NCBI GenBank assembly: GCA_030390025.1
Contig: CM059432.1
Location: 31,250,001 to 31,314,000, forward strand
DNA length: 64,000 nucleotides
Direction of reading: 5' to 3'
Origin: Squalus acanthias
Taxonomy: Eukaryota
This document shows positions 2,966 through 64,000 of this stretch, one piece after another. Each line of letters opens with the position of its first letter. Position 1 is the first letter of the stretch. Position numbers and translations under genes: made by a program. The notes below the pieces were generated by a model. That model saw only the letters and a program-made list of their open reading frames with translations, ran no database searches and was not told the DNA's origin.

Positions 2966-5830
2966 AGAATCATAGAATCATAGAATGGTTACAGCACGGA
3001 AGAAGGCCATTCGGCCCGTCGAGCCCGTGCCAGCTCCTTGCAAGAGCACCTCAGCTAGTCCCACTCCCCCGCCCTTTCCCCGTAGCGCTGCAAATTTCTT
3101 TTCTTCAGATACTTATCCAACTCCCTTTTGAAAGCCGTGATCAGTGCATTCCAGTTCTTAACCACTCACTGCATAAAAAAGTTTTTTCTTATGTCGCCTT
3201 TGGTTCTTTTGTCAATCACCTTAAATCTGAGTCCTCTGGTTCTCGATCATTCTGCCAATGGGAACAGTTTCTCTCTATCTACACTGTCCAGACCCCTTAT
3301 GATTTTGAACACCTCTATCAAATCTCCTCTCAATCTTCTCTGCTCCAAGGAGAACAATCCGAGCTTCTCCAGTCTATCAACATAACTGAAGTCCCTCATT
3401 CCTGGAATCATTCTCGTAAATCTTTTCTGCACCCTCTCTAAGGCCTTCACATCCTTCCTAAGGTGTGGTGCCCAGAATTGGACACAATACTCCAGTAGGG
3501 GCCGAGCCAGTGTTTTATATAGGTTCATCATAACTTCCTTGCTTTTGTACTCTATACCGCTATTCATGAAGCCCAGGATCCCGTAAGCCTTTTTAACTGC
3601 TTTCTCAACCTGCCCTGCCACCTTCAACGATTTGTGCACATATACCCCCAGGTCTCTCTGTCTGTGCACCCCCTTCATTAACCCTTTTGTTTATATTGCC
3701 TCTCATTCTTTCTACCAAAATGTATCACTTCACACTTTTCTGCGTTAAATTTCATCTGCCACGTGTCCGCCCATTTCACCAGACTGTCTATGTCTTCCTG
3801 AAGTCTATCACTATCCTCCTCACTGTTCACTATACTTCCAAGTTTTGTGTCAGCTGCAAATTTTGAAATTGTGCCCTGTAGACCCACGTCCAAGTCATTA
3901 ATATATATCAAGAAAAGCAGTGGTCCTAGAACCGACCCCTGGGAACACCACTGTATACCTTCCTCCAGTCTGAAAAACAACCGTTCACCACTACTCAACT
4001 GTACCTGAACTATTTCCTCTTTAAAGGCAGCCCATTGTTCCATTACAGTTTTGCCTGCCAATGTTTGATTCCAATTTACCTGGGCCAGATCCGTTCTCAT
4101 CCCACTGAAATTGACCTTCCCCCAGTTAAACATTTTCACTCTAGATTGCTCCCTGTCCTTTTCCATAGCTAATCTAAACCTTATGATACTATGATCACTG
4201 TTCCCTAAATGTTCACCTCATGACACTTGCTCCACTTGACCTACCTCATTCCCCAGAACCAGATCCAGCAATGCCTCCTCCCTCGTCGGGCCAGAAACAT
4301 ACTGATCAAGAAAGTTCTCCTGAACACACTTCAGAAATTCTTCCCCTTCTCTGCCCTTAACACTATTACGATCCCAGTCTATATTAGGATAGTTGAAGTC
4401 CCCCATTATTACTACTCTATAATTCTTGCACCTCTCTGTAATTTCTCTGCAAATTTGCTCCTCCATATCTTTCCCACTATTTGGTGGTCTATAGAATACA
4501 CCTAGTAGTGTAATGGCACCTCTATTATTTCTTAACTCTAGCCATTTGATGCTGTCCTTGACCCCTCCAGGACATCCTCCCTCTCCAGCACTGTAACATT
4601 CTCCTTGACCAATACTGCCACACCACCTTCCCTATCTTTCCTGAACACTTTCTAACCAGGAATATTTAATACCCAAGCCTGCCTTTTTTGAACCACGTCT
4701 CAGTTATTGCCACATCATATTCCCATGTGGCTATTTGTGCCTGCAGTTCACTTAACCTTGTTTACTACGCTTCGTGCGTTCACATACATACACTGTAAAC
4801 CCATCTTAGACCATCCTGTATTCTCTTTTAGTTTGACGCCCCTAATCCCTTACTATTTCTCACTTTAGTGCTCTCTGCCTCTCCCAATCCTTTCAGCACT
4901 TTATTTGCGCTTTCCAATGTTAAATCCTGTTGCCCAGGCCAAATTAGTTTAAACCCTCCCCAACAGCACTAGCAAACCTCCCCACGAGGATATTGGTTCC
5001 GACCCTGTTGAGGTGCAACCCATCCGGCCTGTACAGGTCCCACCTCCCCAGAACCAGTCCCAATGCCTCAGGAGTCTAAAGCCCTCCCTCCTGCACCATC
5101 TCTCCAGCCACGCATTCATCTGCGCTATCCTCCTATTTCCATACTCACTCGCGTGTGGCACCGGGAGTAATCCAGAGATTACTACCTTTGAGGTTCTGCT
5201 TTTTAGTCTCTTTCCTAGCTCCCTGAAATCTGCCTGCAGGACCTCATCCCTCTTTCTAGTCATTGGTATGTCATTGGTACCAATATGGACCACAACCTCT
5301 GGCTGTTCACCCTCCCGCCTCAGAATGTTCTGCAGCCGCTCAGTGACATCCTTGACCCTGGCACCAGGGAGGCAACATACCATCCTGGAGTCACGTCTGC
5401 GGCCGCAGAAACGCCTCTCTGCTCCCCTAACTATCGAATCTCCTACCACTATTGCTTTCCCACTCTTCTTCCTCCCCCCCTGTACAGCTGAGCCATCCGT
5501 GGTGCCGTAGACTTGGCTCTGGCTATACTCCCCAGCGGAACCATCGCCCTCACCAGTACTCAGAACCGAATACTGGTTGGAGAGCGAGATGCACTCAGGA
5601 GACTGCTGCACTACCTGCCTGGTTCTCCTCTTCTGTCTGGTGGTCACCCATTCCCTTTCTGCCTGCACACTCTTTATCTGTGAGGTGACCACCTCCTGAA
5701 ACGTGCTATCCACAAATCTCTCAGTCTCATGGATGCACCGCAGTGAAGCCAGCTGCTGCTCAAGCTCCAAAACCCGGAGCTCGAGCTCCTCCAGCTGACG
5801 ACACTTCCTGCACATGTGGTTGTCTAGGAC
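2966..5830 (-). mobile_element. CR1/HER1-type LINE with ORF1, endonuclease, internally deleted RT and 3' tail
   Basis: ORF1 esterase motifs GDSIVRG, CCLPGARVKDV and VHIGTND (4949-5863). Endonuclease motifs MGDFNYPNIDW and LDLVL (4218-4466). RT C-terminus at 3247-3990. (ATTCTATG)n tail on the minus strand near 2966. Confidence 0.9.
4949..5820 (-). pseudogene. CR1 ORF1p (zinc finger/coiled coil plus SGNH esterase-like domain), frameshifted near the C-terminus
   Basis: CRKC...LELRVLELEQQL, GDSIVRG and GTND motifs in the ORF track. Confidence 0.85.
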
Positions 5831-5840
5831 ATGGGAAGAT

Positions 5841-6273
5841 TTATGTCCTACTATCCTGCTCACTATTTACTACATTGCTAAGTTTTGTATCATCCGCAAA
5901 CTTCGAAATTGCACTCCCTATAACCAAGATCAGGTCATTTATATATAACAAGAAAAGCAATGGTCCTAATACTGACCCCTTGGGGACCCCACTTCTTATG
6001 TCTTTCCAGTCAGAAAACCATCCGTTCACCACTAGTCTCTGCCTTCTATCCCTTAGCCAATCATGTACCCAAGTTTCCACCATCCCTTTAATACCGTGTA
6101 CTTCTACTTTCTGAATAAGTCTGTTATGTGGTACTTCTCCCGCATTGCAACAGTAACTTAAAAAAAAAGTACTTCATTGGCTGTAAAGCGCTTTGGGACA
6201 TCTGGTGGTCGTGAAAGGTGCTATATAAATGTAAGTCTTTCATTCTTTCTTTATCAAATGCCTTTTGAAAGTC
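5841..6273 (-). mobile_element. CR1 RT fragment interrupted by a SINE tail (about 6135-6245) and then a solo LTR
   Basis: SGVPKGSVLGPLLFLLYINDL...FADDTKL. Confidence 0.8.
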
Positions 6274-10164: not shown

Positions 10165-11142
10165 ACTTTTTTCTCCAGTGATAGTGATTGTTTTACGTTC
10201 CTCCCTCCCTTTTGCCCCTTGATTTAACTCTATTATTGGAAAGCTTTTAGTGTCTTCTACCATGAAGACTGATACAAAATATTTGTTCAAAGTCTCTTTC
10301 ATTTCCCTATTTCCCATTATTAATTCCCCAGTCTCATCCTCTAATGGACCAACGTTTACTTTAGCTACTCTCTTCCTTTTTATATACTTGTAGAAGCTGT
10401 TACTGTCTGTTTTATATTTCTTGCTAGTTTACTCTCCTAATCTATTTTCTCCCTCTTTAATTTTTTTTTCATCCTTTGCAAGTTTCTGAACATTTTCCAA
10501 TCTTCTGCCCTACCACTAATCTTCGCAACATTGTATGCCTTTTCTTTCAATTTGAAACCCTCCTTAACTTCCTTAGTAAGCCACGGATGGTTCATCCTTC
10601 TCATAGAGTCTTTCTTTCTCACTGGAATATATCTTTGTTGCCCCCTGGTCCTAGACTCTCCAACCAGCAGAAATAGTTTTTCTCTATCTACTCTATCAGT
10701 TCTCCTTAATACCTTGATGTCAATCAAATCACGCCTTAACCTTCTAAATTCCAAGGAATGCAACTCTACTTTATGTAATCTCTCCTCGTAATTTAACCCT
10801 TGGGGTCCAGGTAACATTCTGGTAAATCAACGCTACACTCCCTCCAAGGCCAATATATCCTTCCTAAGAGTGGTGCCCAGACCTACTCATAATAACATAA
10901 GAACTATGAGCAGGAGTAAGCCACATGGCCCCTCAAGCATTCAATAAGATCTTGGCTGATCTTCGACCTCAACTCCACTTTCCTGCCCTATCCCCATATC
11001 CCTTACTTCCTCTGGAGTCCAAAAATCTATCTATCTCAGCCTTGAATATACTCATGATGTGGAGATGCCGGCGTTGGACTGGGGTGGACAAAAATGAGAA
11101 GTCGCACAACACCAGGTTATAGTCCAACAGATTTATTTAATT

Positions 11143-11181
11143 TTACAAGCTTTCGGAACAGTTCGCTCCTTCGTCAGGTAA
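11143..11181 (-). ncRNA. Minimal hammerhead ribozyme motif (left arm)
   Basis: Reverse complement of 11390-11428. Confidence 0.7.
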
Positions 11182-11389
11182 GTTAGCAGTGAGAGAATCT
11201 CCCAGAATTCACAATTTAAACACAGACAAAATATATTCAAATCTTTCCTACATCAAAGAGCACAGCCAAGACAATGACCCCCTGGGACACATCTCATTGT
11301 CTTGGCTGTGCTCTTTGATGTAGGAAAGATTTGAATATATTTTGTCTGTGTTTAAATTGTGAATTCTGGGAGATTCTCTCACTGCTAAC

Positions 11390-11428
11390 TTACCTGACGA
11401 AGGAGCGAACTGTTCCGAAAGCTTGTAA
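11390..11428 (+). ncRNA. Minimal hammerhead ribozyme motif (right arm)
   Basis: TTAC-CTGACGA-A-GGAGC-GAACT-GTTCC-GAAA-GC-TT-GTAA. Stem I is UUAC/GUAA, stem II is GGAGC/GUUCC, stem III is the palindrome AGCU, and the triplet is CUU. Confidence 0.7.
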
Positions 11429-12789
11429 AATTAAATAAATCTGTTGGACTATAACCTGGTGTTGTGCGACTTCTCATTTTTGAATATACTCAACAACTGA
11501 GCATCCACAGCACGTTGGGCATAGAATTCCAAAGATTCACAACCCTCTGAGTGAAGAAATAACTCCTCATCTCAGTCATTAAAGGCCGACCCCTTATCCT
11601 GAGGCTATGCCCCCTAGTTCTAGACTCTCCAGCCAGGGGAAACAATCTCTCAGCATTTCCTCTGTCAATCCCCCCTCAGAATCTTATATGTTTCAATGAG
11701 ATCACCTCTCATTCTTCTAAATTCCAGAGTGTATAGGCCCAATCTACTGAATCTCTCCTCATAGGACAACCCTCTCATCCCAGGGATCAATCTAGTGAAC
11801 CTTTGTTGTACCGCCTCTAAGGCAAGTATATCTTTCCTTAAATAAGGAGACCAAAACTATGCACTGTACTCCAGGTGTGGTCTCACCAGAGCCCTGTACA
11901 ATTATAGCAGGACTTCCTTACTCTTGTACTCCAACCCTCTAGCAATAAAGGCCAACATGCAATTTGCCTTCCTAATTGCTTGCTGTACCTGCATGCTAGC
12001 TTTCTGTGTTTCTTGTACTAAGACACCCAAATCTCTCTGAACACCAACATTTAATAGTTTTTCACCATTTAAAAAATATTCTGTTTTTCTATTCTTCCTA
12101 CCAAAGTGAATAACCTCACATTTCCCCACATTATACTCCATCTGCCACATTATTGCCCATTCACCTAGCCTGTCTATATCCTTTTGCAGGCTATTTGCGT
12201 CCTCCTCACATCTTACTTTTCCACCTAGCTTTGTATCATCAGCAAACTTGGATACATTGCACTCGGTCCTTTCATCTAAGTTATTAATATAGGTTGTAAA
12301 TAGCTGAGCCTCAATCACTGATCTTTGCGGCACCCCACTAGATACAGCCTGCCAATCTGAAAATGACCCATTTATTCCTACTCTCTGTTTTCTGTCTGTT
12401 AACAAATCCTTTATCCATGCTAATGCCTTACCCCCAACCCCATGTGCCATTATCTTGCTTAACAACCTTTTATGTGGCACCTTATCGAATGCCTTTTGGA
12501 AATCCAAATATACTACATCCACTGGTTCCCCTTTATCTACCCTGCTAGTTACATCCTCAAAAAACTCTACTAAATTTGTCAAACATGATTTACCTTTCAT
12601 AAAACCATGTTGACTCTGCCTAATCATATTATGATTTTCTAAGTACCCTGTTACCACTTACTTAATAATGGATTCCAGCATTTTCCCGACAACTGATGTC
12701 AGGCTAACTGGCCTGTTGTTCCCGGTTTTCTCTCTCCCTCCTTTCTTGAATAGCGGGGTTACATTTGCTACCTTCCAATATGTCGGACA

Positions 12790-22310: not shown

Positions 22311-22505
22311 GGGGGCCTCTTCCTGTCTTTTTCTGTGGTCGACATTTATGCACCACTCGTTCTGAGAGAGAGAGAGAGATTCGGAGAGAGAGAGAGAGAG
22401 ACTTCTACATTGACTCAACGCTTTGTGAGGTAGTTTGGCCTAGTTCATCCTAACTTTGCTGCTACTTTAGTTGCTGTACCTCATTACTTTTCTGGCAAAG
22501 AGAAT

Positions 22506-23666
22506 ATGGGGGCTGCAATGATTGGGGGCGTCGTCCTGCTCCAGCTCAATCGGAGGATAGTGAGATGCAGACAGAGAGTGGCAATGATGGCCAGACGGAG
22601 GAGGGCCATCAGGCGCATGTACAGGAGAGCTTACCCTCCCAGGGTATATCGTGAACAGCTCTCCTACATCCATATGTCCGAGGAGCTGTGTTTGCGAAGG
22701 CTGCGATTCAGCAAGGAGGTGGTCACTGAGCTCTGCCACCTGCTGCAGCCAGATCTGCAGCCTCAGCTGAGGTCCAGGACGTCTCTGTCGGTGGCAGTGA
22801 AGGTCACAGTGGCTTTGAACTTCTACGCCACTGGCTCATTCCAAGCTGCTGTTGGGGACCTCGCCAATATCTCCCAGTTTGCGGTGCATCGCTGCATCCG
22901 GCAGGTCACCAATGCCCTCTTCAGAAGGAGACGAGACTTCATCTCTTTCCCTATGACCCCAGACAAGCAGCATGACTGTGCTATGGGCTTTGCGAGGGTA
23001 GCGGGCTTCCCCATGGTGCAGGGCGCCATTGACTGCACGCATGTGGCTTTGCGTGCTCCGCGAGAGAATGCAGAGGAGTTCCGGAACAGAAAGGGGTTCC
23101 ATTCCTTGAATGTGCAGTTGGTCTGTGACCACAGACAGGTGATTCTCGCTGTCAATGCCCACTATCCGGGCAGCTGCCACGATGCTTTCATCCTGTGCCA
23201 GAGTACTGTGGCAGAAATTTTCGAGGCACCGCATCAGCCAGTTGGTTGGCTTCTGGGGGACAAGGGGTACGCATTGAGCACCTGGCTGATGACACCGCTC
23301 CGTGCGCCAAACACCCCTGCTGAGCTGCGGTACCAGGAAAGCCAACAAGCAACCAGGAACATTATTGAGCGCACAATCGGCGTGCTGAAACAACGATTCC
23401 GCTGTCTGGACCATTCCGGAGGAGCCCTGCAGTACTCGCCTGAGCAAGTTTCGAAATTCGTAGTCATGTGCTGCATGTTGCACAACATGGCAATCCTCAG
23501 GACGCAGCCAATGCCACCAGGCCTTGCAGCACCACAAGAGGAGGAGGAGGAAGAGGAGGAACAGGACGAGGACGATGATCAGCAGCAGCACCAAGGCAGG
23601 AGGGCGGCCCACAATGGTCAAACTGCAAGGGCCGTCCGTCAACGACTAATAGCAAGCCGCTTCTAG
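22506..23666 (+). CDS. Harbinger transposase (HARBI1-like, DDE_Tnp_4 family), intact 386 aa
   Basis: Motifs RLRFSKE, LNFYATGSFQ, GFPMVQGAIDCTH, NRKGFHSLNVQLVCD, PGSCHDAFI, LLGDKGY, RNIIERTIGVLKQRFRCL and CCMLHN. Acidic C-terminal tail. No stops. Confidence 0.95.
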   Translation: MGAAMIGGVVLLQLNRRIVRCRQRVAMMARRRRAIRRMYRRAYPPRVYREQLSYIHMSEELCLRRLRFSKEVVTELCHLLQPDLQPQLRSRTSLSVAVKVTVALNFYATGSFQAAVGDLANISQFAVHRCIRQVTNALFRRRRDFISFPMTPDKQHDCAMGFARVAGFPMVQGAIDCTHVALRAPRENAEEFRNRKGFHSLNVQLVCDHRQVILAVNAHYPGSCHDAFILCQSTVAEIFEAPHQPVGWLLGDKGYALSTWLMTPLRAPNTPAELRYQESQQATRNIIERTIGVLKQRFRCLDHSGGALQYSPEQVSKFVVMCCMLHNMAILRTQPMPPGLAAPQEEEEEEEEQDEDDDQQQHQGRRAAHNGQTARAVRQRLIASRF

Positions 23667-23960
23667 GGCCCCTGCCATTGCTACAAACACGAATCAACCC
23701 AGCACGCAACCCCTAAGCCGGCCAAGGCACCAATAATTCCAACCACCAGCCATGTATATTTTGAATACAGAAACTTATTTATTGTACAAACTCTGTGTGT
23801 GTCAATTCCTCATGACAAACTCATAGAAATAAACACAAAAAAACAGTCAATAACATAACTGGTTCTCACAACCTGGAGATAACGTCCAAAACACTAAACA
23901 AAAGTTGGGCCATGAACCTCGGCCTTTAATAAAAAAATGACCAGTATTTTGGCACACCTC

Positions 23961-25784
23961 CTACATTTTGCCCTTCGAGGGTGATCTCCTTCCCTTGCGC
24001 ACTTCCCCCCTTCTAACCCTACTGCTCCTCCGTAATGGGACCTCAGTGGCTGCAGCAAGGCTGGTGGAAGGCTGCTGCTCGTCAGACCCTGACACTGCAG
24101 ATGCCCCTGAAGGACGGCCTCGACCACTTCTGGGCCTGGAGGGCCCGGCTGCAGACTGCACCAACTCTGCATGGGCGGCAGCAGTCTGTCCTACAGGCGG
24201 TGGCAAGTGCAGTGGAGAAGTGACAGTGTTGGCAGCAGGAATGCTGTCATCGTGAGAGAGGACAGCAACTCCCTGCTCGCCCGACACACTGGCACTCCCA
24301 CGGGGCAGCACTTCAGCATCCGGAGCAATTTGCCGGAGAACAGATTGCTGGCCTGCTGCGGCGCGGTGACAGCCCCGGGGACATGTGCACGAACCATCGA
24401 GGATGGCAGCAGTCAGTGCTCGCGTAGCCTCAATCTGAGTCTGCATGAGAGCAGTCTCAGATGGGTTCCTGGCAGCCAGTGACTGAATTGCAGCACTAAG
24501 CTTTAGTGTGGCATCCGCCTGTGCTACAGCGAAGTGCTCCACACTCCTTGCCAGTGCCTCAATGCATTCGGGCACCCTTCCCACTGCACCCATGAGCTCA
24601 GTGTGCATGCCCACCGCCTGGCTGTTCATTTCTGCAATCAGCCGCTCCTCCTCTGCGTCCATTGCAGTAGGAGTGTCTGGCATACTCTCCCTCTGGGGAG
24701 AAGGCTCCCGTTCTTCCCTACCCCCCCCCATGGCGTTGCTGCAGCCCGCTGGGTCCTGGAGCTTCACCATCATCAGCCCCTTCCCCCCTGCTCCCCTCCG
24801 GGGAAGGCGTGTTCCCAGTGTGGCCATGGGCTTCCTCGGGAGAGGGTGGCACTGATGCTCCGGCTTCCTCTTCCTCCTCAGCTGCAGCATCACTCCCAGT
24901 GGCAGCTTCAGGGACCATCTCCTCAGCTGGTGAATCACCATCTGAAAGCAGGGAGGTACAAGAGTGGCTTTAGCGTGAGGACAGGGTGGCAGTAAGGGAG
25001 GAATAAGTGCAGCGAGTTAGCAAGTTGGATTGAAAGTGTCAAAGGCTGGTATTGTGAGGGACAAGTGGAAGGACAGAGGACAAAAAGGTGATGACCTTAC
25101 CATTGCTGTCCACAACGGGGTCAGCGTCCCCAGTGGCGACGGGACCGATCACCCGGCTTGCCACAATCCTGTGGACGCGCTCCTCCAGATCGCTGAGGGG
25201 TTGCAGCTGAAGCCGCCCTCCACCCGTCCGTTGCTGCTGTCTCCGATTATGAGCCAGCTTAGCCTGCAAGAAAAAGGACAGCATCTGAGTAAATATACAG
25301 CCATGGTCTTGCCTGATGTGCCTCCCATAGGTGAATAGCCCTTACAATATGCAGCCATGGTCTTGCCTGATGTGCCTCCCATAGGTGAATAGCCCTTACT
25401 GTATGCAAAGTGTGGAATATGTGTTTGTGTTTGATGAAAGGGCCATAGGTGTTGCATGAGTGTTGTGCATTGGGGTTTTAAGACCCTCTGGCCATATAGT
25501 GAGGTTGAGATGGAGGGATGGAGAGGTATTGAGAAAAAGCCACTCACCCTGACGACCCGAGTGAGGTCGTTGAATTTTTTGCGGCACTGAACATGGGTCC
25601 TGGGCACCATGCTCCTGGAGGAGACGCTCTGAGCCACCTCGCTCCACACTCTTCTGAACTCGCGTGGCAAAGGCCTCCTGCCACTCTCCGGGAACAGCAT
25701 GCATCGTCTGCACTCCACTGCGCCAACCAGAGCATCCAAGGCCCGCTCGGTGAAGCGATGAGCGCGTTCTCTCACCCTCTCCAT
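23961..25784 (-). CDS. Harbinger Myb/SANT-like DNA-binding protein, 3 exons (25784-25548, 25263-25101, 24941-23961), one apparent frameshift at 24721-24729
   Basis: Exon 1 reads MERVRERAHRFTERALDALV...RRVWSEVAQSVSSRSMVPRTHVQCRKKFNDLTR. Introns are GTGAGT...TTGCAG and GTAAGG...TTTCAG. Exon 2 reads AKLAHNRRQQQRTGGG. About 459 aa if one G is removed from the G9 run. Confidence 0.85.
25292..25399. repeat. 54-bp tandem duplication in intron 1 of the Myb gene
   Basis: AATAT(A/G)CAGCCATGGTCTTGCCTGATGTGCCTCCCATAGGTGAATAGCCCTTAC occurs twice. Confidence 0.95.
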
Positions 25785-26578
25785 GCTTGGCAGCAAAATG
25801 GATTACAGGTCTCTCCAGGCTGAGATTCAAGGCTGCAATGAGCAGGGTGTGGCTGGGGAGCAAGTGGCCCCCCCCGCTTTAAGAAGTGTCCGGCGCCAGT
25901 TTGTCTGTGTTCCCTCGCTAACTGGCAGCAGCTGCGCTGCGCTCGTGCGCTGAGGTAGTGCCTCACTCCTAGGCCTTTGCGCCTTAAGAGAGGTGTGCAG
26001 CGCCTAATTTAGCGCTCCACTCACCTCCCGGGGCGGTAAAAGTGAAGTTTCCTGTCAGTGCCGATAATTAGCGCCAGGCGCTAATATTTGCGCTCGGATG
26101 ATATTTGCGCCCCAAATGGGGCGCGACCTAATTTCTACCCCTATGTCTCCTGTCTTTCATTTGATGTCAAATTTACAAAGGCATATGTTTCTTTAATTTA
26201 TGTGATTAATTTTGAAGTGTTGGTTTATAACACTTTAACCAGGGTATGGTATTGTCTTTTTTCTCAAGCTACAGACTTTGGGAACCTCTAACCTTCTGCT
26301 TCAATGAGGCTATTGTTTCAGTGTCAACAACTTATCTTATCTCAAAAGTTTGTATTCTGTTTACAGCTTTTCCTTGTTGAGGCTTTCAGACCTTCAAGCC
26401 CAGTTTGTCATGTTTAATAAAGTCAGAATTCTTTCATAGGATGGTGTATTTTTCTGAAATATGGCGTATTCCTTCACAGGCTGACCCCATGGCCAGCAGC
26501 GGGGCTGAAAGAATACAAGATACCGGTATACTCATGCGTTATCCTCCTTCTCACATCCCACTTCCCCCTCATTCCACA

Positions 26579-32472: not shown

Positions 32473-33984
32473 ACTAACATTAACTAATGGGTTCATGGGT
32501 TAGATGCAGAATCCAATCCACTCTGCTCCAATAATGTGGCACCCAAGAGCACTGCCTACTGTTTCATGTGACAATTTTCCATTCACCATCAAAACTGCAA
32601 ATAATGGAGATCTAAAATAAAATGAAGACTAACCACTTGCTCGGATGGATGACAACACTCAAGAAGGTCTACACGACCCAGGACAAAGCAGTTTGCTTGA
32701 TCGGTGCCCCTGTCATCAGGCTCAATACCCCCTATCTGCAGCGTCCTGTGGCTACAGTATGTACAATCTACAGATGCAATTCACCAACTCAGCAAGGTTT
32801 CTTTGACAACACCTCCTTCCCCTGCGACCTCTAACACCGAGGAGGAAAAGGGCACCAATGATGTGGGGAAACCATCACCTCCAAGTTTCACTTCAAGTAA
32901 GGATGGTGTTTGACTTGGATAGTCAAATCTAACACCATCCTGACTTGAAGGTGCAATGTCATTGGGTCAATATCCTGGAATTCCCTACCTTACACTATCG
33001 TGGAATATCATCTTCACAAGGATTGCAGCAGCTCAAGGAGAAGGTCCACCACCACCTTCTCAGAGCCACTAAGGAGAGGCAATAAATGCAACCTTGCCAG
33101 TGTCACCCACATCCTGAGAACAAAAGACAACAGAAAATGCCAGGAAACATAGCAGGCCAGTCAGCATCTGTAGAGGAAAATGTAAACGCCTGAAAAAATC
33201 TGAAAATGGAAAAGTAGTAGAATTGGGAACAAAGGCGGGTGGTGGCCGGGTAAACAGATACTCCAACCGTATAGAGGAAGTTAATGGGTTGAATGACCTG
33301 CAAACTGCTTAAAAGGAAAGCTGGAAACTATACAGTGATCTAAAAGATCATCTTAGTGAGGCAAGGAAAACCCTTGACTTTGTGCGATTGTGTAAAACAG
33401 GTGATAATGAGTTGACAGCCCATTTTATATCTTTCCTGATTTTTATTTTCATTCAAGTCAATGAAAATAAAATTTGGGGGAAATGGAAAACGGGCTGTCG
33501 CCTCACTACTACCCGTCTTACACAAATGCACAAAATCAAGATCTACCCAATTAAAAGAATGAAAGAAGATGTACATAGCTAAGGGAAAAGGTGAAAAAAT
33601 GGGGGAAATTGAGAGAAAAGAATGGAACCACTTTTTGCAGTGTGCCTTTTAATTCATCCAGTTTCTAACGTTTGGTAGCTAAACACTAAAGGATTGAAAT
33701 GTGTGTCATGGCAAGATTTGGTTTGCACAGTGGGCAGCCTGTGTGAGCGCACAACCAGCAGCCAAGAAACCTTCAGTGCTGCTGCAGCTACTTAAAGAGC
33801 TGCAACAACCATTTAAAGAGTCACATTTGAGCTGAGCAGGAAGCTTAAGTGACTGAAAGTGAAAGACTGCAGTGAAATGGAAGGTGCACTTCCAGATATT
33901 CTGATGAAAACCGTGGGGTAGAAATAGAAAATGAGTGCTACGCAGCCAAATTTATAGGCCCATTTCTGGATGCTCCATGATTAT

Positions 33985-44029: not shown

Positions 44030-46600
44030 TAGAGTTATAGAGTCATAGAGTTATACAGCACAGAAAGAGGCCCTTCAGGCCCATCGTGTCCGCGCCGGCC
44101 ATCAAGCCCTGTCTATTCTAATCCCATTTTCCAGCACTTGGTCTGTAGCCTTGTATGCTATAGCGTTTCAAGTGCTCATCTAAATGTTTCTTGAATGTTG
44201 TGAGGGTTCCTGCCTCGACCATCCTTTCAGGCAGTGAGTTCCAGATTCCAACCACCCTCTGGGTGAAAAAGTTTTTCCTCAAATCCCCTCTGAACCTCCT
44301 GCCCCTTATCTTGAAACTATGCCCCCTGGTTATTGACCCCTCTACTAAGGGGAAAAGTTCCTTTCTATCTACCCTATCTATGCCCCTCATAATTTTGTAC
44401 ACCTCAATCAGGTCCCCCCTCAGCCTTCTCTGCTCTAAGGAAAACAACCCCAGCCTGTCCAGTCTCTCTTCATAGCTGAAGCGCTCCAGCCCAGGTAACA
44501 TCCTGGTGAATCTCCTCTGCACCCTCTCCAATGCAATCACATCCTTCCTATAGTGTGGTGAACAGAACTGCACACAGTATTCCAGCTGTGGCCTAACTAG
44601 CGTTTTGTACAGTTCCATCATAACCTCCCTGCTCTTATATTCTATGCCTCAGCTAATGAAGGCAAGTATCCATATGTCTTTTTAACCACCATATCTACTT
44701 GTCCTGCTGCCTTCAGGGATATATATACATGCACACCAAGGTCCCCTGATCCTCTGTCCTTCCTAGGGTTCTACCATTCATTGTGTATTCCCTTGCCTTG
44801 TTAGTCCTCCCAAAATGCGTCACCTCACACTTTTCAGAGTTAAATTCCATTTGCCACTGTTCTGCCCATCTGACCAACCCGTCTATATCGTCCTGTAGCC
44901 TAAGGCTTCCCTCCTCGCTATTTACCACTCCACCAATTTTCGTGTCATCTGTGAACTTACTGATCATACCTCCTACATTCATATCTAAATCATTAATGTA
45001 CACTACAAACAGCAAAGGACCCAGCTCCGAACCCTGCGGTACACCACTGGACACAGGCTTCCAGTCACAAAAACAACCTTCGACCATCACCCTCTGCCTC
45101 CTGCCACTAAGCCAATTTTGGATCCAATGTGCCAAATTGCCCTGGACCCCATGGGCTCTTACCTTCTTGACCAGCCTCCCGTGCGGGACTTTGTCAAAAG
45201 CCTTACTGAAGTCCATGTAAACTACATCAACTGCACTACCCTCATCCACACTCCGTATCCCATCCCCCTGCCAAGTTAGTTTAAACCCCCCAACAGTACT
45301 AGCAAACCTCCCCGCAAGGATGTTGTTCCCGTTCCGGTTCAGGTGCAACCCGTCCGACTTGTACAGGTCCCACCTTCCCCAGAGCAGACCCAGTGATCCA
45401 GGAAACTAAAGCCCTCCCTCCTGCACCAACTCTTTAGCCACGCATTCATCTGCTCTATCCTCCTATTCCTATACTCACTAGCACGTGGCACTGGGAGTAA
45501 TCCAGAGATTACAACCTTTGAGGTCCTGCTTTTTAATCTGCTACCTAGCTCCCTAAATTCTTGTTGCAGGACCTCATCCCTCTTTCTACCCATGTCGTTG
45601 GTACCAATGTGAACCACGACCTCTGACTGTTCGCCCTCCCCCTTCAGAATGCCCTGCAGCCGTTCAGTGACATCCTTGACCCTGGCACCAGGGAGGCAAC
45701 ATACCATCCTGGAGTCACGTCTGCGGTCACAGAAACATCTATCTGTTCCCCTTACGATAGAATCCCCTATCACTATTGCTCTCCCACTCTTTTTCCTCCC
45801 CTCCTGTGCAGCTGAGCCACTCGTAGGTCCACGGACTTGGCTCTTGCTGCATTCCCCTGAGAAACCATCTCCCCCAGCAGTATCCAAAACGGAAAATCTG
45901 TCGGAGAGGGAGATGGACCCAGGGGACTCCTGCACTACCTTCCTAGTTCTTTTACTCTGTCTGGCGGTCACCCATTTCCTGTCTGCCTGTGCACTCTTTA
46001 CCTGCGGTGTGACCACCTCGTTAAACATGCTATCCACGAAGATCTCAGCTTCGCGGATGCTCCACAGTGACTCCAGCCGCAGCTCCAGCTCCAAAATGCG
46101 GATTTTGAATAGCTGCAGCTGGAGACACTTCCTGCACATGAGTTTGCCCTGACACCAAAAGTGTCCCTGACTTCCCACATAGCACAGGAGGAGCACTCCA
46201 TGGTGCCGAGCTGCCCTGCCATGTCCTACCCTTAATTTACTCCCTTTACTTCCTTTAAATTACAGAATATCAAATACACTAGGGACCTTACTTCCCTTTA
46301 AACACTACTTACTATAAACTAGAGACCTTACTTTCACTTTAACGACTGGACTGTAGAAATACTCACCAGGTCCTACTTCCCAATCAGCTCCTTCCCTGGT
46401 TGTGACATCACTTTAGCAGTTTCGCAGTTGTTATTGTATGACTGCTCCCGCTCTCAGACTCTTTTCTGGGTGTAAAGTAAGAGCCAATTCCTACAGGGTG
46501 AAAAGTTAGGAAAAACAAAGGCGAAGCAAGGGAGCTCCTCCTTCCACTCCTCACCTGACTCCCTGACTCACCCAACTCGCAGTACTCTGTTTAAACCGCA
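44030..46600 (-). mobile_element. CR1 LINE with 5' UTR and ORF1 joined directly to mid-RT (endonuclease deleted)
   Basis: ORF1 esterase at 45339-46222. Junction near 45250 (...TWQGDGIRS|VDEGSAVDVVYMDFSKAFDKV). RT C-terminus at 44118-44621. Confidence 0.88.
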
Positions 46601-50450: not shown

Positions 50451-51729
50451 AAATATTATGGGATTGATTTTCTATTGGGGTTCTCCCAATTGGCTGCCAT
50501 GACTTTGTGCATTTTCCCTAGTGAAATAGACAAAATGAATGGCCTGGGAAAACAAGGTTGGAGATTTGGAAACAATCTCCTGCTGTTGCTTGTTTTTTTG
50601 GGCTGGAATCTGGATATTGATGAGAGGAAACACAGGACAGTGAGTTCCATTTATAGTTCATTATGTAAATGCACCACCCGGTGAGGTACTGAGCCACGCA
50701 GAACAGGAAGATCCCAAGCCTGATCTCTGGGCTGCGCTGTATCAGCTAATCTCATCTTCAATGTCTAGAAATTCCTCCATTTATCCCACGGGGTAAGTTT
50801 GACTTTAATTATTGGATAAAAGAATTCAAATCACAAGAACTGCTTTTGTGGCACTTTGTGAATGTTAGAAAACAGAAGTTGAGAATGGAGTCAAAGCACA
50901 CAGAATCATTCAATTCCTAACAATACCCAAAGTACATAGCATCAAATATAATAACTGTGATGTAAATATTTCTTCTTTGGGCTCTGTATTGGTTACTATA
51001 AATATGCATGAGTAATATAAATGACTATCTGTAGCTGTCGGTATATATTAAATATGTATGAGTGTTCATTTATATGGGTGTACATGAGCAACTATTAAAG
51101 GTGGAACATTGGATGTAATATAAAAATCTTCAAAAATATAAGTGAAAAGGCAATCTTGTAACATTTTTCATTTTAGTCCAATTTGCAACAGCCGTGCTCA
51201 GAGAATGCAATGAATCAAGTCTTAATGGGAATCACTGAATGGCATATTGTACGATATATTTCATGCTGTACTATGAATGATGCAATATTTGGGGTCTTCA
51301 CTTCTGCTTCTCAGTAGCCACACTATGGGGAGCTGGGGCAAGTTTAACTCCCAGCGTGCAGGCTGTGCCATTACACAGGGGGCAGCAGCTGTTGGGGTGC
51401 TGAGAGTCTGTGCAGGTGTTGGCCCCGAAACATCTCTTAATGAGGCCAAAACCTCATATTGTCTTTGAAGCTACCGAACAGCACAGCAAATGCTCAGAGC
51501 CCATATAAAACAGGCACTTCATGGGAAGCCCTTCCCATATATTGGGTCCTTTCTCTTAAATTGGACTAATTTATTTGGATTTGCAAATAGTTACTGGGGT
51601 AGAAATTCATCTTGTGCGGTCGCACAAAACGGGCAATATCGTATCTGCCGCCCATTCTATTCCACGCCCCATATTCAGTCCCATTAACTTCCACAGCACT
51701 GAATATCAGGCGGGGAGTATAACAGACTC

Positions 51730-54700
51730 AGGCGGGGGGGAAGAGGCGAAGGAGAGCAATAGTGATAGGGGATTCAATAGTTAGGGGAGCAGACAGGCGT
51801 TTCTGCAGCCGCAGACGTGACTCCAGGATGGTATGTTGTCTCCCTGGTTCCAGGGTCATTGATGTCACTGAACAGCTGCAGGGCATTCTGAGGGGGGAGG
51901 GTGAACAGCCAGAGGTCGTGGTCCATATCGGTATCAATGACATAGGTAGGAAGAGGGATGAGGTCCTGCAGGCAGAGGTTAGGGAGCTAGGGAAGAGGTT
52001 AAAAAGCAGGACCTCAAAGGTAGTAATCTCCGTATTACTACCAGTGCCACGTGCCAGTGAGTACAGAAATAGGAAGATAGAGCAGATGAATGCGTGGCTG
52101 GAGAGATGGTGTAGGAGGGAGGGCTTTAGATTCCTGAGGAATTGGAACCGTTTCTGGGGGAGGTGGGACCTCTACAAGCCAGACGGGTTGCACCTCAATG
52201 GGAACGGTGCCAATATGCTTACGGGAGGGTTTGCTAGTGCTGTTGGGGAGGGTTTAAACTAGCTTGGCAGGGGGATGGGAACCTAAGTATGGAGTCAATA
52301 GGGAGGGAAGAAAAACTGGAATTGGAAAACAAAAACGTCGAAAGTAAATTGGAAGGACAGAGGAATCAAGGGCTAGATAATAGTCAACAAGGAGGTTTGC
52401 CTCTACTAAATGGTATATACTTCAATGCAAGGAGTATAGCGAACAAGGCAGATGAGCTGAGGGCACAGGTAGATACTTGGGACTATGATATTATAGCTAT
52501 TACAGAGACGTGGCTGAAAGAGGGGCAGGTATAGCAGCTCAACATTCCTGGTTACAGGATTTTCAGATGGGATAGAGAGGGCGGTAAAAAGGGAGGGGGG
52601 TTAAAGAAATTATTACAGCTGTGAGTAGGGATGATATGTTGGAGGAATCATCAAACAAGGCCATATGGGTCGAATTGAAAAACAAAAAAGGGGCGATCAC
52701 ACTGCTGGGAGTGTACTACAGACCCCCAAACAGTGAGAGGCAGATAGAAGAAAAAATATGTGGACAAATTTCTGAGAAGTGCAAAAACTATAGGGCAGTA
52801 ATAGTAGGGAATTTCAACTACCCCAATATTAACTGGGATAAAATTAGTGTGAAGGGTATAGAGGTTGCGGAATTCCTAAAATGCATCCAGGAGAACTTTT
52901 TTGCCAGTATGTAGCAAGCCCAACAAGGGAGGGGGTGGTCTGGACTTAGCTTTAGGGAATGAAGCTGGGCAGGTAGAAGGTGTATCAGTGGGGGAGCATT
53001 TTGGTGCTAGTGACCATAATTCTGTTAGATTTAAGGTAGTTATAAAAAAGGACAAGGATAGACTAGGAATAAAAATTCTAAATTGGGGAAAAGCAAATTT
53101 TGCTAAGCTCAGAGGGGATTTAGCCATAGTGGACTGGAAACAGCTACTTGAAGGTAAATCAGTGTCAGAGCAGTGGGAGGTTCAGACCAAATATGTGTCC
53201 TTAAAGAAAAAAGGTGGGACTAACAAATCTAGAGCCCCCTGGATGTCTAGAGACATACAGGGTAGGATAAAGAAAAAAAGGGAGGCGTATGACAGATACC
53301 GAGGGCTAAATACTCCAGAATCTTTAGAGGAGTACAGAAAGTGCAGGGGTGCAATTAAAAAGGATATTAGGAAAGAAAAGAGAGAGCATGAAAAATGCTT
53401 GGCAAGTAAATTCAAGGAAAACCAAAGATGTTTTATAAATATATTAAGAGTAAGAGGATAACTAAAGAAAGGGTAGGGCCTATTCGAGATCATGAGGGTA
53501 ATCTGTGTGTGGAGGCAGGAGACGTCGGTAGGGTTCTTAATGAATACTTTGCATCTGTTTTCACAAAAGAGAGGGGCGAAGCAGACATTGCTATCAGGGG
53601 GGAGGAGTGTGAAATATTAGATGAAATAAACATAGTGAGAGAGGAAGTATTAAGGGGTTTAGCAGCTTTAAAAGTGGATAAATCCCCAGGCCCGGATGAA
53701 ATGTATCCCAGGCTGCTAAGCGAAGCAAAAGAGGAAATAGCAGAGGGCCTGACCATCATTTTTCAATCCTCTCTGGCTTCAGGTGTGGTGCCGGAGGACT
53801 GGAGGACTACTAATGTGGTACCCTTGTTTAAAAAGGGAGAAAAGGATGGACCGAGAAATTACAGGCCAGTCAGCCTCACCTCGGTGGTGGGAAAATTATT
53901 GCAAAGAATTCTGAAGGACAGGATAAATCTTCATTTAGAAAGATACGGATTAATCAAGGATAGTCAGCGCGGATTTGTTAAGGGAAGGTCGTGTCTGACA
54001 AACTTGATTGAATTTTTTGAGGAGGTAACAAGGAGGGTAGATGAGGGTAGTGCGATTGATGTAGGGTATATGGACTTTAGCAAGGCTTTTGATAAGGTTC
54101 CACATGGCAGACTGGTCACAAAATTAAAAGCCATGGGATCCAGGGCAAAGTGTCAAGTTGGATTCAAAACTGGCTCGGAGACAGCAAGCAGAGGGTAATG
54201 GTTGATGGGTGTTTTTGTGACTGAAAGGCTGTTTCCAGTGGGGTTCTGCAGGGCTCAGTACTAGGTCCCTTGCTTTTTGTGGTATATATCAATGATCTAG
54301 ACTTGAATATAGGTAGTATGGTTAAGAAGTTTGCAGATGATACTAAAATCGGCTGTGTGGTTGATACTGAAGAAGGAAGCTGTAGACTGCAGGAAGATAT
54401 CAATAAATTGGTCAGGTGGGCAGAACAGTGGCAAATGGAATTCAATCCGGAGACGTGTGAGGTAATGCATTTGGGGAGGGCTAACAAGGAAAGGGAATAC
54501 ACATGGTCGGACATTGAGTAGTGTCGAGGAACAAAGGGACCTTGGAGTGCATGTCCACAGATCCCTGAAGGTAGCAGGCCAAGTAGATAAGGTGGTTAAG
54601 AAGGCATACAGAATGCTTGCCTTTATTAGCCGTGGCACAGAATACAAGAGCAGGGGGGTTATGCTTCAACTGTATAAAACACTAGTTAGGCCTCAGCTAG

Positions 54701-60759: not shown

Positions 60760-61530
60760 GTTTGCAACCTTAGTGTCATATTTGACCCCGAGATGAGTTT
60801 CTGACTACAAAATTGCGCCGACTACGAAATTGCGCCATCACTATGACCGTCTATTTCCAGCTCCAGAATATCGCCCGTCTCTGCCCCTGCCTCAGCTCAT
60901 CCGCTGCTGAAACCCTCATCTATGCCTTTGTTACCTCTAGAATTGATTATTCTAACACACGCCTGGTTGGCATCCTACGTTCTACCCTATGTAAACTTGA
61001 GGTCATCCAAAACTCGGCTGCCTGTGTCCTAACTCGCTCCAAGTCCCGTTCACCCATCACCCCTGTGCTGACCTACATTGGCTCCCAGTTAAACAATGCC
61101 TCGATTTCAAAATTCTCATCCTTGTTTTCAAATCTCTCCATGGCCTCGCCCCTCCCTATCTCTGTAATCTCCTTCAGCCCCACAACCGCCACCCCCCCCC
61201 CCCGCCACCCCCTGCCGAGATATCTGCGCTCCTCTAATTCTGCCCCCTTGAGCATCCCTGATTACAATCGCTCAACCATTGGTGCCCGTGCCTTCTGTTG
61301 CCTAGGCCCTAAGCTCTGGAATTCCCTGCCTAAACCTCTCCGCCTCGCTACCTCTCTTTCCTCCTTTAAGATCTCCTTAAAACCTACCTCTTTGACCAAG
61401 CTTTTAGTCACCTACCCTAATTTATCCTTAAGTGGCTCGGTGTCAAATTTGTTGTCTTTTAATACTCCTGTGAAGCGCCTTGGGAGGTTTTGCTACGTTA
61501 AAGGCGCTATATAAATACAAGTTGTTGTTG
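60760..61530 (+). mobile_element. L2-clade LINE 3' fragment
   Basis: NIARLCPCLSSSAAETLIYAFVTSRIDYSN...IQNSAACVLT...GPKLWNSLP, ending in a (GTT)n tail. Confidence 0.88.
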
Positions 61531-62004
61531 AAGTTTTTGGAATATTTTACAGATGAGCAGCTTTTAAGCAAGTACAGAGCTGGGGGAAAGGGGGCCCTTA
61601 GAAGAATAAAAGGGAAAGTCTGTGATAAGCTGACGTGCACAAGAAAATGTACTATTAGCCGAACAAGTTATATTCCCTTAATAGACACAAAGAGAAAAAA
61701 ATCAGCAATTAATACTTGCAGGAAGATCTAATTTATTATCACATATTGTGTTTCCATAGTAAAATAGTTGTGCCAGTTGTGTGACAGTGGGGATGACAAG
61801 CCAGTTGTTTCTACACAAAGCCAATTACATATTCGTGCAAAAATTGGAACAATAAACTTATTAGAATTAATGGGTTGCATTGGCAACCCTTGCAGAAATT
61901 AAGATGAAAGGCCTAGCTAGACGTATTCATTTATAGCCTCTGAGTATTACAAACGTTTTGTAAATTTATGATTTGACCACACTACATGACAGCACAGAGT
62001 TGTA

Positions 62005-62150
62005 ATTGCCTCAATCGTATATTTCCCTCCACCGTGGTTGACATGGCCCTCGATCGTGTGCATCCCATTTCCCACACTTCTGCTCTTCACCCCTTCCCCT
62101 CCCTCCCAGAACCACGACAGAGTTCCCCTTGTCCTCACCTTCCAGCCCAC
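62005..62150 (+). mobile_element. Penelope-like ORF fragment (RT-endonuclease linker)
   Basis: FPSTVVDMALDRV...SAL and, in a shifted frame, DRVPLVLTFQP. Confidence 0.6.
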
Positions 62151-63451
62151 CGCGATATCCCCCACCCCACCCCAGACACCGATCGCTCCCACCCCCAGGG
62201 CTCGCGATTCCCCTTCTGAGCACTCGTGATCCCATCTCCGGCCACCGGTCACTTACCTGTGGGCCACCGTGGCGCTAGCAGTGGCCCTGAACTTCCAGCA
62301 CTTAGTTGCGTGACCTCCTTCCGCAGCGCCTTCTCTATGTGAATGAGGACTGAGACCCAGTTACCGGGACTCCTCAGACCTCGCCATTGTTGTGGGTGGG
62401 GGGGGGGGGTCCTATACTGGGTGCTCCCAAATTTCTAGCGCTACAGCTTTGAGCTCCATTTGAATCTGAAAAGACTGTTAAATCAGTTCTGCTGTTTGAA
62501 ATGTTCAAACAGTTAAGCGTGCCTGCTATAAGATTCAATCGGTAACTGCAACAGGTGCTGTGGCACTGACCCAAAGACCAGTAAATTTGCAAGTGAGACC
62601 GCACCTTTTTTGTGGGGGTGATACTGGCACCAACACCTTGCAGCTTCACAATAGCTTTTTTTTTAAATTAGCACAGAAAGGGATTTAGTATGAGGTTGGT
62701 ACGAGAACAGTGCCCTCGACAAATATATCCCATTGCTGGAACAGAAGGACTCTGACAATCCAGGGTTTGAAGCTTTAGCTGGTACACATTCTTTATACAA
62801 TATTAAAATATCAAGCTGATTTCAGGCCTGGCTTGGCATACAGTACATCTGATCTGGACTGTCATCTCTGGAAATAGTCAGCAATGAAAACGGGCTGCAT
62901 TATATTCACAAAGAGATACATTCGGAATATGATTTACATTCTGTTATATCTTTATCGCTTGTTTTCCAGCTCTTGCTTTTGAAACATTTGAAACCAATTA
63001 CACAAATTTTTCTAATGATTGGCATTTTGTGGCTGCGTTGTCTACAGTCAGTCAGAGTAATGTTGGATGAAGCTCACCCAGCAGGTGACTCTTTCTCTGA
63101 CTATTTTTTTTCATTCCACCCTTTCCTCCCTCCCTTTTTCTTCCATCCCCTTCTGGAGAAGTTGACTCACATTGAGGTACGGTACCATCTGCCTGCCATA
63201 CCTCACCCATGGTGCCGTATGTGAACCAAGATAAGCCGCTTTATTCCCCCTACCTAATCAGAGGCTTTGAGGCCGATTAAAGGGCCCCTACCGTTACCAT
63301 GCTAATCATTCGAAAAATCTGCACAATTGGTTTCATTTCTCAATAGCAAAAGGTAGAAGACAAGTGAAAGAGAAATAAGTGCTAGTAAATAAGACTCAGA
63401 CTGTATCTCATTGTTAAAATAATGCTGCCTGTTTTCATTGCTGATATTTCA

Positions 63452-64000
63452 ACAATAACAACAACAGCTTGTATTTATATCGCGCCTTTAACCTAGTAAA
63501 ACATCCCAAGGAGCATCACAGGAGCGATTATCAAACAGAATTTGACACCGAGCCACATAAGGATATACTGTATAAGGGCAGATGTCCAAAAGCTTAGTCA
63601 AAGAGGTAGGTTTTAAGGAGCGTCTTAAAGGAAGAAAGAGAAGTAAAGAGGCGGAGTGGTTTATGGGGGGAATTCCAGAGCTTAGGTCCTTGGCAGCTGA
63701 AAGCCCGGCCATCAATGGTGGAGCAATTAAAATCAGGGATGCTCAAGAGGCCAGAATTAGAGGAGCGCAGATATCTGGGAGGGTTGTGGAGTTGAAGGAG
63801 ATTACAGAGATAGGGAGGGACGAGGCCATGGAGGGATTTGAAAACAAGGATGAGAAGTTTGAAATTGAGGCGTTGTTTAACCGGGAGCCAATGTAGGTCA
63901 GCGAGCACAGGGGTGATAGGTGAACGGGACTTGGTGCGAGTTAGGACACGGGCAGCAGAGTTTTGGACGACCTCAAGTTTACATAGGGTAGAACGTGGGA
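63452..64000 (-). mobile_element. L2-clade LINE 3' fragment (runs off the window)
   Basis: LADLHWLPVKQRLNFKLLILVFKSLHGLVPPYL...KTLLKTYLF. Confidence 0.9.

Follow-up and report, generated by a model that had tools for sequence, protein, structure and literature searches.

A palindromic insertion of a young Penelope-like element in the Squalus acanthias genome, probably made in one event by twin priming

Inverted copies of the pseudo-long terminal repeat (pLTR) of Penelope-like elements (PLEs), with a tail at one end, are already in print (PMC3846280, PMC8557442), as are dual minimal hammerhead ribozymes (min-HHRs) lying 100-700 bp apart on opposite strands (PMC4209133). In Pen2/Pen2a of the rotifer Adineta (PMC3846280; scheme in PMC8557442), an inverted, 5′-truncated copy stands head-to-head beside a direct one, a 30-40-bp tail is found at one end only, a target-site duplication (TSD) is present and long copies contain partial tandems. 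As far as the accessible parts of these sources go, the making of PLE inverted repeats and of the one-sided tail is called undefined (PMC8557442) or left to experiment (PMC3846280). Here we analyze a stretch of 64,000 nucleotides (nt) of Squalus acanthias (assembly GCA_030390025.1, contig CM059432.1, positions 31,250,001-31,314,000, forward strand), hereafter the window, which carries a PLE insertion of this kind. It shares the features listed for Adineta, the partial tandems being found in three long copies of the family (loci L031, L118 and L119), and differs in that both arms are reduced to the pLTR and the whole insert is a 425-bp palindrome. The TSD of the family is 12-14 bp, against 8-10 bp quoted for the rotifer copies, and the tail ends at the start codon, while it reaches into the open reading frame (ORF) in Pen2a and in an anole element. 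Inspection of the junctions of this insert and its sister copies suggests that the palindrome probably arose in a single event of twin priming, with the two 3′ overhangs left by a staggered cut each priming on element RNA.

The preliminary description of the locus had reported exact reverse-complement arms with a 16-nt spacer, and the arms were indeed found at 11089-11277 and 11294-11482, 189 nt each, with 100% complementarity and a gap of 16 nt. Among the 11 inverted repeats of at least 40 nt (no more than 3 kb apart) in the window, this hairpin is the only perfect one, and its fold z-score of -40.9 was matched by none of 100 shuffles. The insert proper occupies 11055-11479 and is flanked by 13-bp TSD copies at 11042-11054 and 11480-11492, the second of which is overlapped by the last 3 nt of the right arm. 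With numbering from the A of the ATG of the parental ORF (+1), the left arm, whose pLTR reads sense on the minus strand, corresponds together with its tail to element positions -221 to +1, with 100% identity to the intact copy L031, and 3 more nt are common to element and TSD. The right arm has its sense pLTR on the plus strand and no tail; with loop and microhomology it corresponds to -239 to -36, and again 3 more nt (to -33) are common to the two. It extends 18 nt further 5′ than the tailed arm. The tail, 34 unpaired nt at 11055-11088 on the minus strand, ends in the full element L031 at the A of the ATG, and the two start points are 37 nt apart. Microhomology amounts to 3 nt at both outer ends, where the last 3 nt of the left TSD copy (TCA) match the element just beyond the tailed end and the first 3 nt of the right copy (TTG) match it just beyond the tail-less end, and to 2 nt at the centre, where GA at 11276-11277 is common to both arms (centre overlap -2). 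The supposed spacer at 11278-11293 (plus strand) has the length described and is more than a spacer: it is element sequence of the right arm only, from the 3′ untranslated region (-237 to -222).

The insert interrupts the last coding stretch (minus strand) of a decayed ORF2 of a probable CR1-type long interspersed nuclear element (LINE), between ...LSIF and KAEIDRFL.... The host was delimited for its part from the reverse transcriptase (RT) to the 3′ end (10891-12657, minus strand) by its reading frame and an RT fragment, which lies upstream of the insertion point and gives an RVT_1 match. The 13-bp TSD and the LINE around it agree with the preliminary description; the name CR1 is our assumption from C-terminal motifs.

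A comparison of the arm plus extension (223 nt) with the animal's own genome yielded 1,141 candidates, of which 40 places were scored, each with 100% identity. Two arm matches 3,026 bp apart enclose an intact ORF of 892 amino acids (aa) in L031, which has an RVT_1 match (E = 1.4e-8). Pfam GIY-YIG gave no direct match on this ORF, and its C-terminus shows 39% identity over 290 aa to a turtle protein (P0009), spanning the Pfam GIY-YIG match of the latter. Aligned with P0009 are the GIY-YIG stretch VVYLIRCSKGC...YIG, with a CCHH arrangement (two Cys between GIY and YIG, then two His), and, in the linker before the endonuclease (EN), a C-x3-C-x2-C motif (PCHGNLCKAC). The closest homologues are shark proteins, 79-91% identical, whose records are nameless or "uncharacterized"; a PDB sequence search with the ORF returned no match at E ≤ 0.1, and NCBIfam only weak RT matches below cut-off. 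GIY-YIG with CCHH marks EN-containing (EN+) PLEs, and the linker Cys motif is given for the Neptune and Nematis clades in the available text of PMC8557442. Read from the sequence of L031, the linker motif is thus the mark of Neptune/Nematis. L031 consists of a 532-bp partial unit, the full 3,026-bp unit and an inverted arm, with a similar layout in L118 and L119, and the parent is almost certainly an EN+ PLE with a single RT and GIY-YIG ORF, partial-tandem pLTRs and a one-ended 30-40-bp tail. For a vertebrate element we take Neptune to be likelier than Nematis. The vertebrate groups named in the accessible part of a recent source are Neptune and Poseidon (10.64898/2026.07.22.740005).

It is likewise near certain from these comparisons that the hairpin is a 5′-truncated, head-to-head double copy of the pLTR, that is the 3′ end, of this young PLE; it reads as a dead end. 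The Penelope-like origin, the inverted truncated structure and the minimal hammerhead put forward in the preliminary description are backed by the L031 ORF, the pLTR identity and the hammerhead variants given below. Its term "protein-free" applies to the coding content of the insert only and not to its origin, as the insert was most likely made by the RT-endonuclease of its own family.

To characterize the junctions, 117 loci were gathered, giving 72 rows with both outer ends and a TSD (18 tail-selected, 23 from a short-palindrome search, 25 from the hammerhead and 6 from the hot site described below). The short-palindrome search comprised 26 loci, of which the window is counted elsewhere and L048 and L049 were unresolved; L089, a duplicate, was left out. 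For statistics 56 loci were kept, after exclusion of the window, the 6 site-selected loci, 2 of distant families and 7 with a TSD outside 11-16 bp. In all 72 resolved inverted rows there is one tailed and one tail-less end, never two tails or none, and 48 of these rows had not been selected for the tail. The last match of the tailed arm lies at -15 to +12, mostly at 0 to +5, and that of the tail-less arm at -27 to -45. The tail has a median length of 39 nt (range 20-49) in the kept loci, and the TSD is 12-14 bp in 49 of 56. Outer microhomology averaged 1.98 nt at tailed ends (n = 51, rows without extra bases) against 0.72 nt when ends were permuted among targets, and 2.26 nt at tail-less ends (n = 54) against 1.04 nt; in neither case did any of 5000 shuffles reach the observed mean. 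A centre overlap of at least 2 nt was found in 26 of 56 loci (26 of 40 without filler), compared with 15% by chance. The arm reaching further 5′ was the tail-less one in 30 and the tailed one in 26 of the 56, and the arm lengths correlated (rho = 0.54, p = 0.009, n = 22, both arms required to hold the hammerhead; rho = 0.60, p = 0.04, n = 12 in a second subset). Among unselected simple insertions, five of six end at -33 to -39 and the other at +2, which indicates that -33 to -39 acts as a priming end.

The sequences also indicate that the two arms of one insertion come from one donor. In 25 loci of other subfamilies there were 17 differences in 4,062 sites (0.4%) between arms, compared with 6.4% between loci, and 40 young loci hold six locus-private bases common to both arms (0.00055 versus 0.00001 per site). 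Two 7.1-kb palindromes show 21 and 7 differences of about 3,000 sites within, against 33-36 between them. Seven minor-allele cases not common to both arms look like later point mutations.

The 49 independent target sites give a profile of about 7 bits, a value biased upward by the small sample. Its symmetry is centred on a 12-bp core, and the preferred bases are C at -7 and -1 and T at +1 and +5, together with the mirror images of these. The window site scores 4.7 on this profile, above the 99th percentile of 2,494 flank positions (4.0), the mean of real sites being 6.3, and it offers 3-nt pairing at both ends. A search for the same site across copies of the host LINE gave 18 exact junctions, one of them that of the window. 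Chance would give 0.035, as calculated from 17,414 empty sites with an exact match and the 15,136 exact 17-nt tail ends in the genome (all subfamilies together). Moreover, 34 of 43 junctions no more than 30 nt from the anchor stand at the window's offset, and 152 hot-site junctions were counted when up to one mismatch was allowed. The target of the window thus reads as a recurrent hot spot hit by independent events, because the inserts differ in length, centre and subfamily. A composite CR1-PLE unit spreading as one was rejected: inserts at the shared site vary from 186 to 2,174 bp, in centre and in subfamily (85-100% identity to L031), and their hosts are only 77-90% alike. True site-specificity was rejected as well, since 18 of the 15,136 tail ends (0.12%) lie at this junction and 55 of the 56 kept loci are elsewhere. 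Nearly identical 12-bp TSDs and flanks are seen in L035 and L065 (L091 is similar), a second recurrent target that is probably another host repeat, and L074 is a simple tail-less insertion whose 12-bp TSD starts like the hot site of the window.

From these data we narrowly favor a programmed form of twin priming, with a dimer, a 12-13-nt stagger at a loosely palindromic target, two fixed start sites about 35-40 nt apart on one sense RNA and 1-3 nt of pairing. A dimer of the element protein would cut both strands 12-13 nt apart and leave two 3′ overhangs. Base pairing of 1-3 nt would anchor the first of these to the sense RNA at the start codon, and the second to a site some 35-40 nt upstream of it. 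From there, two RTs would copy toward the 5′ end of the RNA, probably of one and the same molecule, the rear RT displacing the cDNA of the front one. For the window insert, both RTs would have halted after about 200 nt and the cDNA ends would have been joined via the 2-nt microhomology, and failure of one priming would give a simple insertion of either end type. Copying one RNA twice would result in the strict one-of-each use of start sites and in linked arm lengths. On balance, and with some reserve, we think that twin priming on one RNA would cover the inverted pLTR, the one-ended tail, the narrow TSD range and the hot spot at the CR1 end, and would replace antisense self-priming.

Twin or dual priming as described for L1 (PMC2837659, consulted in part) is similar in that both TSD overhangs prime, TSDs flank two inverted fragments and microhomology is found at the target ends and the centre. 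L1 twin priming, however, accounts for a minority of events, its second, internal site varies and its fragments do not overlap. In the present family it would be the prevailing route, from two fixed sites, and the arms overlap completely, hence a palindrome. In vitro, both strands are cut and extended by the protein of the anole element PAc (Poseidon of Anolis carolinensis; Frangieh et al. 2024, PMC11167929), a predicted dimer whose RT starts at two sites, one at each boundary of the tail; the hammerhead lies upstream of the start sites and is dispensable for insertion. Two putative start sites bound the tail here too, as read from genomic junctions. PAc belongs to another clade, the present element having the Neptune/Nematis linker motif. 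The available text of that paper reports a start site not homologous to the cut DNA and does not treat inverted insertions, which disagrees with the 1-3-nt junction microhomology here and differs from our strict one-of-each sites. No paper stating a twin-priming model for PLEs was found in a literature search that was thin on subscription-journal PLE studies.

Several points weigh against this mechanism. Its steps are read from end products alone, and one RNA is indistinguishable from two RNAs of one donor locus. Microhomology is absent at 9 of the 72 tailed and 10 of the 72 tail-less ends, extra bases precede the TSD at 9 and 3 of them, respectively, and in 16 of 56 loci a filler takes the place of the centre overlap. 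The symmetry of the combined target logo is there partly by construction, and TSD length grows with summed microhomology (rho = 0.46), so that the true nick is uncertain by 1-2 nt. Sixteen of the 72 rows were left out of the statistics, and L106 had dropped out of the census through a de-duplication key. Later conversion between arms could add to their likeness, though the young loci hold 38 differences against the 6 shared private bases. In contigs assembled from eight public runs, which give no evidence of transcription, no listed piece bridges the centre or the whole locus, a result that is uninformative in such repeats. In the accessible literature, variable TSD length is put down to second-strand cleavage after target-primed reverse transcription (PMC8557442), and self-priming on an antisense template is preferred (PMC3846280). 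As for the fillers themselves, 27 nt in L009 (1412-1439) are copied from element positions -153 to -126, the filler of L094 is 63 nt resembling a piece of the ORF and that of L002 measures 84 nt; such fillers look like signs of template jumps during the central join.

An alternative is that the overhangs primed on two different RNA molecules from a single donor locus, with an asymmetric dimer binding one RNA per subunit. No strand displacement would then be needed to account for the TSD, the microhomology at either outer end, the joining at the centre and the full overlap of the arms. Such dual priming has already been proposed for L1 (PMC2837659, in the part available), and a single active donor per germ cell would also give like arms. 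It is unlikely in our judgment, as it does not readily explain the exclusive use of different start sites by the two ends (72/72) or the correlation of arm lengths. We regard as hardly probable the self-priming or fold-back model, in which one cDNA or antisense RNA folds at a microhomology and copies itself, the second end being joined later (PMC3846280, as far as its available text goes). It is the sole published explanation that we found for the head-to-head geometry, it agrees with the excess of centre microhomology and with arms from one donor, and the arm lengths, taken alone, would be compatible with a switch to an antisense RNA whose 5′ end is fixed near -35. A fold-back copy, however, cannot outreach its template at the 5′ side, yet the tail-less arm is the longer one in those 30 of 56 loci, and by 18 nt in the window; starting from the tail-less arm, it cannot supply the tail. 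Neither microhomology at both outer ends nor the -33 to -39 end of simple insertions is predicted by it. Twin priming therefore appears to fit the junction data better than the published self-priming idea.

Two further explanations concern what the hairpin is rather than how its ends were primed. The preliminary description speculated on function and on extrusion of a cruciform by the DNA. A functional or self-propagating non-coding element might supply hairpin RNA to small interfering RNA or ADAR pathways, work as a ribozyme switch or form a non-autonomous, retrozyme-like unit. A fold of -353 kcal/mol is predicted for read-through RNA, hammerhead features are preserved across 37 variants, and rotifer small RNAs against Penelope copies are reported in the available text of PMC3846280. 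The conservation, however, belongs to the parent element, read-through RNA is predicted not to adopt the ribozyme fold, and the hairpin unit of the window has not spread, because its centre junction occurs once among 26 matches. The neighborhood shows only transposable-element domains: in the 50 ORFs scanned (plus 3 earlier) of the window's 82 of at least 110 aa, there was no host gene domain, only LINE and Harbinger domains, together with three low-complexity matches without a passing stretch. We consider the functional speculation unsupported and an element of this type very improbable. An assembly artefact, in which one pLTR copy was misassembled by collapse or fold-back, would be in keeping with the fact that perfect palindromes can be artefacts and with the lack of a bridging contig from the 4 + 4 runs, uninformative as this is in repeats. 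The exact 13-bp TSD, the LINE frame contiguous on both sides and the unequal arms argue against it, as do 71 other rows of like anatomy but with their own lengths, centres and arm-to-arm differences, and we give it next to no weight.

The palindrome is an ordinary product of its family, of which the genome holds 552 exact hammerhead copies and 179 pLTR-ORF-start junctions (up to one mismatch). Among the first 100 hammerhead matches, neighbor pairs within 10 kb were head-to-head in 23 cases, tandem in one and tail-to-tail in none. The first 30 matches represent 21 loci, of which 13 are inverted, 6 simple and 2 run off the stretch; inverted palindromes are the commonest product. Counted among the 13 are two identical-looking inverted insertions 64 kb apart (L058-L061, G000:C1), probably a segmental duplication. 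A short palindrome of nearly the window's centre was found at 26 loci, with the exact junction of the window only once. A non-long-terminal-repeat retrozyme was rejected on this single occurrence, the head-to-head arms and the one tandem and no tail-to-tail pair in 100 matches.

The perfection of the arms is unremarkable, because the rate of difference between sister arms (41 of 12,130 sites over 40 young inverted loci) would give no difference in 189 nt 53% of the time. The preliminary description had called the insertion very recent, which holds for the family and not as a mark of this copy. The arms of other subfamilies differ by only 0.4% and 21 of 23 of their TSDs are exact, for which reason we dropped the label "older subfamilies"; by sequence they are probably young as well. 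Arms and TSDs are also near-perfect in several subfamilies with 83-98% identity to L031 (L032-L057), which differ most in loop II of the hammerhead, and many lineages seem to have been recently active side by side. The 7.1-kb palindromes of L118 (942-8078) and L119 (1029-8178) have a full and a partial unit in each arm, one arm tailed and one not, and three of their four ORFs are open for 892 codons; since each arm exceeds one unit, the template was longer than one unit. L120 (3651-4591) is a chain of short tandem pieces with unusual end points, each a part of the pLTR plus about 105 nt of the ORF start.

The predicted minimal hammerhead motifs lie at 11390-11428 (plus strand) in the right arm and, as its mirror, at 11143-11181 (minus strand) in the left. 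The core boxes and stem I had been read correctly before: on the plus strand, stem I is UUAC/GUAA (11390-11393/11425-11428), followed by CUGACGA (11394-11400), a bulged A (11401), a 5-bp stem II (11402-11406/11412-11416), GAAA (11417-11420), then GC and UU, with the predicted cut after 11424. What had been described as a palindromic stem III is palindromic, but is merely the 4-nt AGCU, whose pairing is possible only with a second copy. Among 37 variants in the fetched loci, found with a pattern that demanded the core boxes, helix II always has at least 4 bp and loops have 3-8 nt, N7 is any of the four bases and, at position 17, 33 variants have U and 4 have C. The bulged A (between 9 and 10.1) and the palindromic GC (15.2-16.2), neither demanded by the pattern, are present in 37/37, and one compensatory change in helix I occurs in L016. 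The motif thus agrees in sequence with the min-HHR description (CUGANGA / helix II / GAAA / NUH core, short helix I). It shares with metazoan PLE min-HHRs (Cervera & De la Pena 2014, PMC4209133) the core boxes, a 4-bp helix I, the unpaired base 9/10.1, G10.1-C11.1, palindromic 15.2-16.2 and the lack of helix III. Helix II is 5-6 bp here against 7-8 in the Schistosoma families, the predicted cleavage triplet is CUU here, and sharks are not named in the available text of that paper. The preliminary description had suggested a search of Rfam, which returned no hammerhead family (0 of 10 matches at E ≤ 5, 0 of 1 at E ≤ 10); microRNA matches were below gathering scores and were rejected as generic hairpin likeness.

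The predicted competition between hairpin and ribozyme, also raised earlier, would be one-sided. Stem II has a pairing probability of about 0.28 when one arm is folded by itself, compared with about 1e-20 for the full insert, and the antisense arm is transcribed first on either strand, so that the ribozyme is predicted to be buried, and off, in read-through RNA. With one hammerhead per strand no cis dimer can form, and a modelled trans dimer reached -12.1 kcal/mol versus a cofold minimum of -18.5. Published min-HHRs cleave weakly, as dimers or in a protein-dependent manner (PMC4209133, PMC11167929, in the parts available). The hammerhead here is best read as a passenger inherited from the parent pLTR, with putative self-cleavage.

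Elsewhere in the window, a Harbinger-type transposase (DDE_Tnp_4, 410-aa frame, plus strand) faces a Myb/SANT frame (minus strand) at 22434-25802, and LINE ORF1 frames with a GDSL-like esterase domain adjoin endonuclease and RT fragments at 4949-5866, 45339-46259 and 51723-52262. An imperfect 81-bp inverted repeat (gap 6 nt, 77%) at 33373-33540 does not match the PLE motif, and toward the window end (60973-64000) there is a larger, likewise imperfect inversion.

Hairpins of this kind have been described, and there are hundreds of them; the value of the present one is that of the smallest complete record of a Penelope-like integration event. The first in vitro PLE system stops short of explaining inverted repeats and the one-sided tail in its accessible text (PMC11167929), and this young family gives testable numbers, namely a symmetric target, a stagger of 12-13 nt and priming over 1-3 nt at two start sites (+1 and about -35), each used once per event. 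PLEs are telomerase-related retroelements, and the question of their integration becomes directly testable in this family. If twin priming is true, a vertebrate retroelement routinely writes perfect palindromes of about 160 bp to 7 kb via a double-strand break, and would be a steady source of potential double-stranded RNA and unstable DNA.

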